A stretch of DNA of 40,188 nucleotides, from positions 1 to 40,188 of the forward strand of contig MGIQ01000001.1 of the NCBI GenBank assembly GCA_001793825.1, given 5' to 3'. Positions within the stretch are counted from its first letter, which is position 1, and the number at the start of each line of letters is the position of its first letter. The position numbers and the translations under genes were made by a program. The stretch comes from Candidatus Wolfebacteria bacterium RIFCSPLOWO2_01_FULL_38_11 (GTDB lineage: Bacteria > Patescibacteriota > Minisyncoccia > UBA6257 > UBA9933). The notes under the pieces are model-generated. The model was not told the DNA's origin. It was given only the letters and a program-made list of their open reading frames with translations, and made no database searches. Below, in pieces: positions 10,624-23,959 of the stretch.

Positions 10624-11106
10624 ATGCTAAAAATATTTTCAACACTGATTTTTGCAATTTTATTATCAAGCGGTTTTGCATCCGCAGTTTCTGCTCATGG
10701 CGGCGAAGCGGATGGGCACAGCGGAACAATGATGAAAATGGATGATATGATGTCGGAAATGATGGGAGAAAATAAAGCAATCAATTGCGCGGCAATGGAC
10801 TCCGCTGAATTAATTGAAGAAGGAGAGGATTTGATGTCAAAAATGATGGCTGGCGATGAGGCAAAGCACGAGAGTATGGAAGAATCAATGGAAGAAATTG
10901 CTGGTATGGAATTTCATGATATGATGCATTTAATGATGGGGCGGGTGGCCAGCGGATGTCTTACTGATGAACAGCAAAAAGCCGTGGCATCAAAATTAAC
11001 AGTAGTTGCGCCGCAAAGAACCAATCAGACGCTGCCTCTTGTAACCGGTCTTGCAATAGGATTGATTGTTGGATTGGTCGGAATGTCGTTTTTCCGAAAA
11101 TCTTAA
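10624..11106 (+). CDS. Met/His-rich exported, C-terminally anchored protein (putative Cu-binding)
   Basis: Signal peptide ending VSA-HGG; many Met; C-terminal TM helix; copper-gene context. Confidence 0.65.
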   Translation: MLKIFSTLIFAILLSSGFASAVSAHGGEADGHSGTMMKMDDMMSEMMGENKAINCAAMDSAELIEEGEDLMSKMMAGDEAKHESMEESMEEIAGMEFHDMMHLMMGRVASGCLTDEQQKAVASKLTVVAPQRTNQTLPLVTGLAIGLIVGLVGMSFFRKS

Positions 11107-11137
11107 TTTAAGGACGTACGGCGTCCTCATAATTGGA

Positions 11138-11530
11138 TTAATCAACGACAATGAAGTGGCCGGTTTGTTCAAAATGCCCTTCACCGCAAGGGACCGAACA
11201 ATAAAAGACAAACTCGCCTTTCTTTGAAGCAACAAATTCAATAATAGTTTCCTGTTTTGGAAAGAGTCGCTTGTTGACGCCGAAGACCTCAATGGCAAAA
11301 CCATGGTCATAAGGATCGTCGTTATAAATTTTCAATCTGACAGTATCGCCGGCTTTAACAGTAATTAAAGTGGGATCCCATTTATTTTTGGCCGCTGTCA
11401 TATTTATTTCCACTACATTGCCGGTCGCTTTAATGGGGGCGACCTCCGGCGCCCGGAAATAAATTTGATAAACAACACCGCCGGAAATAAGAACCGCGGC
11501 AAAGATAATTATGATAATAAATTTATTCAT
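11138..11530 (-). CDS. Membrane-anchored cupredoxin (CuA-like motif)
   Basis: N-terminal TM; DHGF and FYCSVPCGEGHFEQ. Confidence 0.85.
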   Translation of the reverse strand: MNKFIIIIIFAAVLISGGVVYQIYFRAPEVAPIKATGNVVEINMTAAKNKWDPTLITVKAGDTVRLKIYNDDPYDHGFAIEVFGVNKRLFPKQETIIEFVASKKGEFVFYCSVPCGEGHFEQTGHFIVVD

Positions 11531-22210: not shown

Positions 22211-22240
22211 GATAATTTTTGCGCCAGAGTAGCTCAATGG

Positions 22241-22347
22241 TCCCCCACCCATTATTATGCCACCCTAGCTCAATGGCAGAGCAATACTTTTGTAAAGTAG
22301 AGGTTCGGGGTTCAACTCCCCGGGGTGGCTCAAAAATGGGTGGGGGA
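22241..22347 (+). mobile_element. tRNA-carrying mini-insert with 13-bp perfect IRs
   Basis: TCCCCCACCCATT (22241-22253) / AATGGGTGGGGGA (22335-22347) enclosing tRNA-Thr(UGU). Confidence 0.65.
22259..22330 (+). tRNA. tRNA-Thr(UGU), nested
   Basis: GCCACCC/GGGTGGC-T acceptor; TACT-TT TGT AA-AGTA; CGGGG-TTCAACT-CCCCG. Confidence 0.92.
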
Positions 22348-22376
22348 TAAAGCGAAAGTTGGCTGGCTCGCAATAT

Positions 22377-22448
22377 GCCGATGTAGCTCAGTGGTAGAGC
22401 AACTCCATGGTAAGGAGTAGGCCGCCAGTTCAATCCTGGCCATCGGCT
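22377..22448 (+). tRNA. tRNA-Thr(GGU)
   Basis: GCCGATG/CATCGGC-T; ACTCC-AT GGT AA-GGAGT; GCCAG-TTCAATC-CTGGC. Confidence 0.95.
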
Positions 22449-22513
22449 CAAATTTTTTTTCAAAGGAAAAAAAATTTGCCCCGAAGAAGCGAAGCGAAAG
22501 CGGGGCTATAAGT

Positions 22514-22780
22514 ATGTATTTTGTCTACATTTTAAAATCTAAAAGTACAGGCAGACATTATGTTGGCTATACAAATAATCTTCAAAGAAGATTAAAAGAA
22601 CATAACAACGGCAAAACTAGATCATTAGTAAAGTACATACCTCTTGAAATTATTTTAGTAGAAGAGTATAAAATATTAAAAGAAGCAAGAGAAAGAGAAA
22701 AACAAATTAAAAGCTATAAATCGGGCGAAGCATTTAAAAAATTATTAAATTTACAACCCACGCCTTCGGCGGGGTGCTGA
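22514..22780 (+). CDS. Stand-alone GIY-YIG nuclease
   Basis: YFVYIL.S....HYVGYT.NL.RRL.EHN.G, E..A..RE..IK; flanked by GC hairpins at 22478-22506 and 22756-22775. Confidence 0.93.
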   Translation: MYFVYILKSKSTGRHYVGYTNNLQRRLKEHNNGKTRSLVKYIPLEIILVEEYKILKEAREREKQIKSYKSGEAFKKLLNLQPTPSAGC

Positions 22781-22833
22781 ATTTTATAGATAAATTTTTT
22801 ATCGCTTTACTCAAAAATTTATATAAAATTCGC

Positions 22834-23001
22834 ATGGCAAAATCAAAATTTTCAGAAAATTTAATAAGACTTCGCTGTACTGTCTGCAAAAGAAATAATT
22901 ATTATACTCGCAAAAAGAAATCATTGGAGCGGAAAATTGAAGTTAAAAAATATTGTAAATGGTGCCGAAAACACACTCCGCATAAAGAAGCGAAAATATA
23001 A
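22834..23001 (+). CDS. rpmG: 50S ribosomal protein L33 (Zn-binding form)
   Basis: ATG at 22834; CTVC..NYYT.K, KKYCKWCRKHT.HKE. Confidence 0.95.
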   Translation: MAKSKFSENLIRLRCTVCKRNNYYTRKKKSLERKIEVKKYCKWCRKHTPHKEAKI

Positions 23002-23067
23002 TATTTTGATATTATATCAAAACATTAATTAGGGAGTTTAGGTAAGTGGCATAACGGCGGTCTCCAA

Positions 23068-23174
23068 CTCAGCACATTTAGTTTAAATGGGAGTGTCGTC
23101 CAATGGCAGGACTCTGGTCTCCAAAACCAGGTATCCAAGTTCGAATCTTGGCATTCCCGCAAAAATGTGCTGGG
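23068..23174 (+). mobile_element. tRNA-carrying mini-insert with 12-bp IRs
   Basis: CTCAGCACATTT (23068-23079) / AAATGTGCTGGG (23163-23174) enclosing tRNA-Trp. Confidence 0.65.
23089..23159 (+). tRNA. tRNA-Trp(CCA), nested
   Basis: GGGAGTG/CATTCCC-G; CTGGT-CT CCA AA-ACCAG; CCAAG-TTCGAAT-CTTGG. Confidence 0.94.
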
Positions 23175-23308
23175 CGATTCCCTCAATTCATTATTCTTAT
23201 TCCCTCCCTAGGTTTTTTGAACTTATTTTCTTTTTCCGAGATTTTATTATTAATTGGAATTAATCCAAACTTTTTATATAATAATTAAAATAAAACAAAC
23301 TTTCAATA

Positions 23309-23959
23309 ATGGATATTGATTTTGAAAATTTAATAAATTCACTAATTAAAGATGGTTATTTAAAAACTTCGGGCATAATAGAGGCTTTTAAAAAAATAAA
23401 TCGCAAAGATTTCGTTTCCGAAGAATATAAAAATGAAGCCTATATTAATGCTCCCCTGCCTATTGGTTTTGGGCAAACCATTTCTCAACCTTTAACCGTA
23501 GCTTTTATGCTTGAACTTCTTGAGCCAAAAAAAGGAGAGCGTATCTTGGATATTGGTTCCGGTTCTGGCTGGCAAACCGCAATACTTTCTTCTATTGTCG
23601 GCGATCCGCCGGCTGGCGGAGGTAGAGTTGTCGGTATGGAAAGAATTCCTGAGCTTAAAGAAATGGCCGAAAGAAACGTTTCCAAATATAATTTTATTGA
23701 AAAAAATATTGCCAGCATTATCTTGGCTGATGGTTCTTTTGGCTATAAAAGAGAATCGCCTTATGATAAAATTATTGCCGGAGCAGCCGCTGTAAAAGAC
23801 ATACCAATGGAATGGAAAAAACAGTTAAAAATCGGAGGCCGGATAGTCGCTCCCGTTGGTCATAGCGTTATTGTTATTGATAAAATTAGCAAAAATGAAT
23901 ATACTAAAAAAGAGTATTTTGGATTTAGCTTTGTCCCGCTTATCACTATTAACCATTAA
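23309..23959 (+). CDS. pcm: Protein-L-isoaspartate O-methyltransferase
   Basis: LPIG.GQTISQP, LDIGSGSGW, DGS.G, PYD.I, QL..GGR.V.PVG, F.FVPL. Confidence 0.94.
   Translation: MDIDFENLINSLIKDGYLKTSGIIEAFKKINRKDFVSEEYKNEAYINAPLPIGFGQTISQPLTVAFMLELLEPKKGERILDIGSGSGWQTAILSSIVGDPPAGGGRVVGMERIPELKEMAERNVSKYNFIEKNIASIILADGSFGYKRESPYDKIIAGAAAVKDIPMEWKKQLKIGGRIVAPVGHSVIVIDKISKNEYTKKEYFGFSFVPLITINH

Follow-up and report, generated by a model that had tools for sequence, protein, structure and literature searches.

An intact tRNA-Trp gene set between inverted repeats inside a broken native tRNA-Trp gene of a Wolfebacteria genome, with recurrent tRNA nests and tRNA-associated GIY-YIG nuclease genes in its relatives

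The window analysed here is a stretch of 40,188 nucleotides (nt) of contig C1 (MGIQ01000001.1) in the genome of Candidatus Wolfebacteria bacterium RIFCSPLOWO2_01_FULL_38_11 (G000; 540,729 bp, 23 contigs, completeness 96%), and our subject is a tRNA-Trp gene that lies within a second, broken tRNA-Trp gene between rpmG and pcm (Table 1). Here, tRNA genes were called with ARAGORN and scored with the Rfam model RF00005, and inverted repeats were judged by shuffling their 45-nt flanks in 2000 trials. The tRNA-Trp locus was inspected in 65 genomes besides G000, and the order was represented by a set of 401 genomes. The initial annotation, made from the letters of the window, had described a tRNA-Trp nested in a decayed tRNA-Trp directly after rpmG, and we found all the elements of this arrangement to be present. 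The outer gene begins 30 nt after rpmG, and its 5′ part reads GGGAGTTTAGGTAAGTGGCATAACGGCGGTCTCCAA (23032-23067). The start had earlier been set at 23031, but the A at that position lies outside the gene, as relatives start at GGGAG.

The breakpoint after nt 37 (A37, in the anticodon loop) was set by alignment with intact relatives and agrees with the cut described before. The outer sequence reappears in the T loop, where the 3′ remnant corresponds to nt 56-67 of the relatives' gene and is identical at 12 of 12 positions to intact genes of type A, by which we denote the native-type tRNA-Trp that same-family relatives keep intact (e.g. G020 at locus L027 and G014 at locus L031). Since the outer pieces end at nt 37 and resume at nt 56, nt 38-55 have been replaced by a 107-nt insert (23068-23174). 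The T arm, which the initial annotation took for lost, survives in half, and it is nt 38-55 that are gone. The insert is bounded by an inverted repeat, as had been noted, whose arms pair at 10 exact positions, or over 12 bp when one T.G pair is counted; between them stands an intact and different tRNA-Trp gene, followed by AA before the right arm. The inner gene does not encode the CCA end, so that CCA must be added afterwards. Downstream of the 3′ remnant, an 8-nt direct repeat, ATTCCCTC (23177-23184 and 23199-23206), brackets the filler, with its second copy inside the decayed end. The CTCCCT reported there as complementary to the old 5′ end is present and could still pair with it; this stretch is either what is left of the acceptor strand or else another scar that has decayed. 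In the centroid fold of the single-stranded DNA, the repeat stem encloses a cloverleaf and is continuous over 9-10 pairs, in line with the earlier remark that no bulge-helix-bulge is apparent.

Table 1. Features of the tRNA-Trp nest, its neighbours, the other tRNA nests of G000 and the covering Logan contigs (positions in the window unless another contig is named)
Feature	Position	Strand	Remarks
Outer native-type tRNA-Trp, nt 1-37	23032..23067	+	GGGAGTT...GGTCTCCAA; acceptor 5′ strand, D arm, anticodon stem 5′ strand, CTCCAA of anticodon loop
Inverted-repeat left arm CTCAGCACATTT	23068..23079	+	
Spacer AGTTTAAAT, 9 nt	23080..23088	+	equivalent place holds the nuclease gene in G015
Inner intact tRNA-Trp(CCA)	23089..23160	+	ARAGORN call; RF00005 61.2 bits
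Inverted-repeat right arm AAATGTGCTGGG	23163..23174	+	
Outer tRNA-Trp 3′ remnant CGATTCCCTCAA	23175..23186	+	nt 56-60 of T loop, T stem 3′ strand, first two acceptor bases (CGATT CCCTC AA)
Decayed 3′ end of outer gene	23187..23209	+	17-nt filler, then CTCCCT (23204-23209)
rpmG (ribosomal protein L33)	22834..23001	+	PF00471, E 1.1e-16; conserved 5′ neighbour of tRNA-Trp in relatives
pcm (protein-L-isoaspartate O-methyltransferase)	23309..23959	+	PF01135, E 1.7e-57; downstream syntenic neighbour
GIY-YIG nuclease gene, 88 aa, single-domain	22514..22780	+	PF01541, E 1.7e-14, residues 1-67; between tRNA-Thr(GGU) and rpmG
tRNA-Thr(UGU)	22259-22331		between TCCCCCACCCATT and AATGGGTGGGGGA; 13-bp repeat 22241-22253/22335-22347
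tRNA-Pro(UGG)	c25436-25506	-	between CCCCGCACTAAAA and TTTTAGTGTGGGG; arms 25524-25512 and 25426-25414; outer tRNA-Pro 25560-25337
tRNA-Glu(UUC)	contig C16 11185-11257 (nest 11100-11324)		between TCCCCCACTCA and TGAGTGGGGGA; at 37/38 of outer tRNA-Glu
Logan contig, X1 record 3	22394-23134		
Logan contigs, X1 record 6, X4 record 15, X8 record 31	23107/8-23320		

The two genes of the nest are of different types. The outer 5′ part is identical at 34 of 36 positions to the intact tRNA-Trp genes of G020 and G014 and at 25 of 36 to the inner gene; its BLAST matches in relatives cover query positions 198/203-238. An intact tRNA-Trp sits at the same rpmG...pcm locus in same-family genomes (pcm follows in G014, G020, G030 and others), and the outer gene, as the interrupted one, must be the older of the two; it is of the native type, which family members keep intact here. 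The inner gene matches G288 at 68 of 72 positions and G039 at 65 of 72, both from other families of the order, while within its own family identity reaches at most 56/72 (G015) and is 46/72 to the genes of G020 and G014. A search of the order returned matches at E<=1e-5 in 70 of the 401 genomes, the best of them in families f6, f4, f16, f24 and f29. In several of 28 loci inspected in other families, an inner-type tRNA-Trp lies directly after the end of rpmG, and the GC-rich flanking repeat was found at none of these 28 loci. The inner gene is the sole tRNA-Trp among the 41 tRNA genes of G000, and the passenger has thus taken over the function. Functional replacement of the native gene had been proposed in the initial annotation, and this is borne out; the inner type is native to other families of the same order. 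Relatives with the inner type at this locus, and with neither an outer remnant nor an outer-type gene anywhere, would have spoken against it, and what we found is that same-family relatives carry the outer type intact here. Taken together, these comparisons show an outer gene of native type, an inner gene of foreign type, and an order of events in which the outer gene came first.

An exact inverted repeat of at least 10 nt arose in 2 of the 2000 shuffles, which places the Trp repeat beyond chance. Short-read contigs often break or mis-join in tRNA genes, and the Logan contigs do break within the inner tRNA; still, both junctions of the nest are covered by Logan contigs from four runs of four studies with 0 differences, although the best-matching run may be the window's own source sample. 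Further, the independent genomes G004 and G015 share the architecture. The Trp nest is not an assembly artefact, and a joining of the tRNA-Trp genes of two organisms during assembly or binning is scarcely conceivable. Some contig joints (e.g. 22913 to 23101) had sides of less than 30 nt at 90% likeness, probably came from other organisms and were not used. Among the 17 runs listed, there was no RNA run with this sequence. A scan of metagenomes with the first 22 nt of the outer gene gave two contigs, one of which is an uninvaded G014-like locus and neither of which is an empty-site allele of the G000 strain. The second contig (L115, oriented positions 1-210) holds a decayed tRNA-Trp of another type with a hairpin, TCCCGATTT...AAATCGGGA, in its anticodon loop; an intact type-A tRNA-Trp lies just downstream of the decayed gene, so that there the type-A gene is the replacement.

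The same two breakpoints, 37/38 and 55/56, together with homologous hairpin arms, occur at tRNA-Trp in three of the 65 other genomes, namely G004, G015 and G035, and the outer and inner tRNA sequences differ among these and the window despite the common breakpoints. The nest of G004 is built in the same way, with CCTAGCACCTTTT/AAAAGGTGCTAGG as its arms and with other outer and inner genes. Its arms differ from those of the window at three positions; two of these are compensated on the opposite arm, and the third is T.G in the window against C-G in G004. In G015, the order is outer nt 1-37, the whole hairpin CCCGGCAGTTGCCGGG, an open reading frame (ORF) for an 88-amino-acid (aa) GIY-YIG protein (PF01541, E 5.8e-14) that reads into the inner tRNA, the inner tRNA-Trp itself, AAA, the hairpin again, and the outer 3′ end from the T loop. 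In G035, an intact gene precedes two units in tandem, each made up of TCTCCAA, then the hairpin, then the 3′ end starting at CGATT, a layout that would be expected if the two 5′ halves of a nest like that of G015 had recombined. The common breakpoints and differing outer sequences would fit one deleted allele that spread by homologous repair with the outer pieces as homology arms.

Two pattern searches bear on how narrow this distribution is. The pattern GCYRGGCRATTYCYT occurs in 13 of 51 family genomes, nine of which are chance matches in coding DNA, and in G000, G004, G015 and G035 it lies at tRNA-Trp. The junction pattern GTYTCCAACYYRGCA was found at eight places in seven of the 401 order genomes and lies at tRNA-Trp only in G000, G004 and G015 (family f1); its matches in G059, G232, G391, G400 and contig C15 of G000 lie away from tRNA-Trp and were set aside as chance. 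In G249, from another family, a hairpin and then CCTCAACTCCCGC lie downstream of tRNA-Trp. Separately, a cluster of hairpins (TTCGCT..GAAGCGAG..CGGCGGGCAAAGCCCGCC and variants) directly follows the tRNA-Trp 3′ end at L069, L073, L076 and L085, in several families, and similar hairpins of the GCGAAGC type stand in the Pro and Thr nests of the window and before its GIY-YIG gene.

The arrangement is not confined to tRNA-Trp. Four of the 41 tRNA genes of G000 (Trp, Thr, Pro and Glu) are nested in outer genes of the same identity between GC-rich repeats. The exact repeat observed was reached in 0 of 2000 shuffles for Thr and 2 of 2000 for Glu. In the Thr nest (22221-22376), tRNA-Thr(UGU) is preceded by a 21-nt fragment (22221-22241) from the 5′ part of another tRNA, which is cut in the D loop, and TAAAGCGAAAG...CTGGCTCGCA follows as the decayed 3′ remainder of the outer gene. 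The outer tRNA-Pro has a second hairpin (25404-25374) 3′ of its anticodon loop. Once the inserts are removed, ARAGORN calls the outer Pro and Glu genes as complete tRNAs, the former of 72 nt with both inserts out, and their sequences are 93-100% identical to the bodies of the tRNA-Pro(GGG) and tRNA-Glu(CUC) of G000 (97-100% for the outer Glu body). At the junction of the Glu nest, an extra TT and AAGC lengthen the anticodon stem. G000 shows a series from fresh nests (Glu and Pro) through a gutted one (Trp) to one nearly erased (Thr). Each inner tRNA shares its anticodon with its outer gene, which makes the outer gene redundant.

Nested tRNA-Thr(UGU) genes are also present in G011, G022 and G033; in G011 the outer gene is complete, with the insert between anticodon nt 35 and 36, and at the tRNA-Thr(UGU) of G058 the repeat is present and the remnant absent. 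Insertion points observed in tRNA genes are the D loop, 31/32, 35/36, 37/38 and 55/56. The heptamer CCCCCAC has 13 copies in G000, which is about the number estimated for chance; the arms are not a dispersed repeat family in this genome. Elsewhere on contig C16 (1340-1436, minus strand), a 15-nt 5′ piece of tRNA-Arg(CCU) with two 7-bp hairpins in the former D loop lies ~115 nt upstream of an intact tRNA-Arg(CCU), and looks like a tandem arrangement and not a nested replacement. In its intron mode, ARAGORN reported a tRNA-Ala(GGC) with an 89-nt intron (L005) and a tRNA-Arg(GCG) with a 197-nt intron (L021); the tRNA-Ala(GGC) call proved to be a misread nested tRNA-Thr(UGU).

The GIY-YIG nuclease gene of the window (Table 1) lies outside the Trp nest and is the only copy in G000 by tblastn. 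A separate small hairpin stands at each end of the gene (22450-22833), and no GC-rich gapless inverted repeat enclosing it was found. A gene 69% identical lies at the same place in G033, so that the insertion predates the split of the two genera. Five residues of the window protein, Y5, Y16, R26, H30 and E62, which we take to be the GIY-YIG catalytic residues, are invariant in all 11 aligned homologues, and its nearest solved relatives are the UPF0213 mini-nucleases. Pfam found no DNA-binding domain in the 88-aa proteins; PF01541, a weaker T5orf172 match and a sub-threshold MUG113 match fall on the same stretch.

Homologues of this nuclease are present in 51 of 61 relatives, with up to nine matches per genome, and are strongly associated with tRNA genes. 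Of the best 20 homologue loci from relatives, 10 have a same-strand tRNA that adjoins or overlaps the 3′ end of the ORF, and nine of these ORFs have a copy of at least 14 nt of the 5′ half of that tRNA upstream. A further four have a tRNA 12-163 nt upstream and one has a tRNA remnant (15 of 20 tRNA-associated in all), and five have no tRNA. Three of these five (L092, L103 and L105) lie between arms such as TCCCCCA/TGGGGGA or CACCCCCATCTTT/AAAGGTGGGGGT, which belong to the same arm family as those of the Thr and Glu nests. In a sample of the phylum searched with the homologue alignment, the nuclease was found in 108 of 151 genomes. At 29 loci from this sample, 10 genes abut a tRNA, nine lie downstream of a same-strand tRNA at a distance of up to 205 nt, and for the other 10 there is no tRNA close by. 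At L088, L089, L099, L100 and L010 (the last in G015), the nuclease ORF ends at a TAG in the D arm of the downstream tRNA, with an overlap of 10-25 nt. The Trp nest is one case of a recurrent kind of cassette that is bounded by hairpins and in some copies carries a GIY-YIG gene.

We consider it probable that the locus is a native tRNA-Trp invaded by a hairpin-bounded cassette with its own tRNA-Trp, from which the nuclease gene is now gone. The cassette of the window (23068-23174) consists of left arm, 9-nt spacer, tRNA, two A and right arm; the resident gene is a dead shell, with all tRNA-Trp supplied by the passenger. In its full form, the cassette would leave the order old 5′ part, hairpin, GIY-YIG gene of ~85 aa, new tRNA of the same identity, hairpin and old 3′ part. 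The nuclease would cut a tRNA gene that has not been invaded, within a loop or close to one (anticodon, T or D loop), and the break would be mended from the invaded copy, with the old tRNA pieces and flanks serving as homology arms. The spare tRNA would make an otherwise lethal disruption tolerable; later, the nuclease gene could be lost and the outer gene decay. On nuclease-driven homing as the mode of spread, we find the considerations evenly balanced. The passenger is probably co-transcribed with rpmG and would be freed by RNase P and a 3′ processing nuclease. The window nuclease (22514-22780) might act in trans, and may in this way mobilise units that consist of repeat, tRNA and repeat and have no nuclease gene. 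G000 has four such units with related arms, and the unit would then be a tRNA-carrying miniature element.

Several described systems resemble parts of this scheme. SegB is a free-standing GIY-YIG homing endonuclease in the tRNA gene cluster of phage T4; it is reported to recognise a site that takes in the T-psi-C stem-loop motif conserved in tRNA genes, and to promote its own inheritance along with that of the tRNA genes beside it (PMC2330249). Both systems place a GIY-YIG gene among tRNA genes, here at 15 of 20 loci in relatives and 19 of 29 in the phylum sample, and the 3′ breakpoint of the Trp nest likewise falls in the T loop. Unlike SegB, the proteins here are single domains of ~85 aa; SegB has a DNA-binding part, and a separate DNA-binding domain defines its family. 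The systems also differ in that a nuclease inside the mobile unit is absent from the window's nest, though present in the G015 copy. SegB, a phage protein, lies between genes and leaves no broken outer tRNA of the same identity, and hairpin or inverted-repeat borders do not belong to the system as described (PMC2330249).

The Ssn proteins are site-specific GIY-YIG nucleases for single-stranded DNA with flanking NTS/SRM hairpin repeats; they cut single-stranded DNA beside hairpins, and the authors liken the architecture of gene plus repeats to an insertion sequence (Chenal et al. 2025, PMC11893778). Small single-domain GIY-YIG proteins (~100 aa class; 88 aa in the window) and genes flanked by hairpins are common to both. 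In contrast, the Ssn repeats are dispersed by the hundreds, whereas here the hairpins enclose a tRNA within a tRNA gene, and the word tRNA does not occur in the Ssn paper (PMC11893778). SegB and Ssn are precedents for parts of the proposed scheme. With miniature inverted-repeat transposable elements, the nests share terminal inverted repeats (12 bp, with related arms at four loci), but not a target-site duplication. In bacteria of the candidate phyla radiation (CPR), GIY-YIG and LAGLIDADG genes occur in insertion sequences of rRNA genes, often at stem-loop tips; that study found the GIY-YIG genes sparse and its authors placed them outside homing (Tsurumaki et al. 2024, PMC11270868). The host group is the same and nuclease genes likewise lie inside structural RNA genes. 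However, inserts in rRNA have to be excised or tolerated, whereas the nests come with a spare gene; the study is confined to rRNA genes and does not use the word tRNA (PMC11270868). Full-text literature searches, with subscription journals and supplements outside their scope, gave no account of tRNA-in-tRNA nests or of GIY-YIG/tRNA cassettes in these bacteria.

A number of observations weigh against the invasion of the native gene by a nuclease-bearing cassette. No ORF or trace of a nuclease was found between the arms (23068-23174), and the cassette may never have had one; since the spacer is just 9 nt, the loss of the nuclease gene is an assumption. No direct repeat abuts the Trp arms as a target-site duplication, and 18 nt of the target are missing instead. 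The inner tRNA has the target's own anticodon loop, which leaves immunity to re-cutting unexplained. The uninvaded allele of the G000 strain was not seen in the four Logan runs, so that recent mobility is unsupported. The SRM pattern of the Ssn repeats (HGTCWY..RNCYNB) is matched nowhere in the 40 kb of the window or in the 24,119 nt that the 20 nuclease loci comprise; hairpins of other sequence are present. The Pro repeat is weak in its exact part, with 8 nt reached by 32 of 2000 shuffles. Moreover, a 10-nt repeat also flanks a tRNA-Met of G000 (C8), where it is rich in AT and seems to have no relation to the others, and repeat length by itself is accordingly not diagnostic. Finally, the inner and outer genes of G015 and of G004 are nearly of the same type (2/36 differences in G015), which fits a local duplication equally well.

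Such a duplication, tandem or fold-back, would give two tRNA-Trp genes of which one decays, with the repeat as a by-product and no mobile element. The near-identity in type in G015 and G004 speaks for it, together with the missing nuclease gene and missing target-site duplication in the window. We nevertheless regard it as unlikely, because the inner gene of the window matches the outer one at 25 of 36 positions over the 5′ part, yet genes of other families at 68 of 72. In addition, one genome holds four same-identity nests with related arms, like arms flank GIY-YIG genes elsewhere, and four genomes with differing tRNA sequences have identical breakpoints. The scar of a deleted tyrosine-integrase element with its attachment site in tRNA-Trp is a considerably less likely origin. 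Such elements do use tRNA genes, and particularly the anticodon and T loops are classic integration sites, but they leave direct repeats of the 3′ part of the tRNA and not a whole second tRNA between inverted repeats. The list of ORFs at 20-27 kb, in which integrase families were not searched for, has no long ORF beside the locus save housekeeping-looking genes, and no integrase-bearing island with these junctions was present among the 66 tRNA-Trp loci inspected.

It is also conceivable that the nest works at the level of RNA, the outer gene being a split or intron-bearing tRNA whose halves are held by the 12-bp stem for ligation after excision of the inner tRNA. The initial annotation had pointed out that 37/38 is the canonical intron site of archaea and eukaryotes. 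The Trp and Glu breaks do lie there, the GC-rich complementary flanks recall archaeal and eukaryal introns and the split tRNAs of Nanoarchaeum, a G.U pair would be tolerated in the stem, and the outer Pro and Glu genes keep all their parts and are called as tRNAs without their inserts. The likeness to archaeal introns ends at the position, and in Trp nt 38-55 are replaced and not merely interrupted. The outer Trp is without nt 38-55 and the outer Thr without most of its body, so that no tRNA could be rebuilt from either, which excludes this explanation for both. Unlike in true introns and split tRNAs, the exons are incomplete, and what would be the intron is a whole tRNA with the identity of its host gene. 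A bulge-helix-bulge, for which no dedicated search was run, would need two 3-nt bulges that flank a 4-bp helix; the stem is unbroken and shows no such motif. The tRNA splicing endonuclease (PF01974) was not found at E<=1 in the 96% complete G000, in a search that was positive in all four archaeal controls and over the cut-off in 4 of 14 controls. An origin at the RNA level is thus very improbable, and invasion by a tRNA-carrying cassette remains our preferred explanation of the locus.

If this explanation holds, an essential gene can be parasitised without an intron or intein, through the parasite's own spare copy, which would be a third way for homing elements to inhabit indispensable genes. 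It would explain the divergence of tRNA-Trp among members of one family at one syntenic locus, as well as the nesting of four of 41 tRNA genes in a genome of 0.54 Mb, and the nucleases would be candidate structure- or sequence-specific cutters of tRNA-gene DNA. For annotation, the intron search of ARAGORN miscalls nests as intron-bearing tRNAs, as in the tRNA-Ala case above and perhaps the tRNA-Arg one. The nests also matter for phylogenies that use tRNA genes, as well as for estimating horizontal transfer in Patescibacteria. More broadly, and here we are equally inclined for and against, they may represent a phylum-wide, undescribed class of selfish elements, in which a hairpin surrounds a GIY-YIG gene of ~85 aa and a tRNA gene; such elements would invade the loops of essential tRNA genes of the same identity, survive through the replacement they carry and cause the tRNA genes of ultra-small bacteria to be replaced horizontally again and again.

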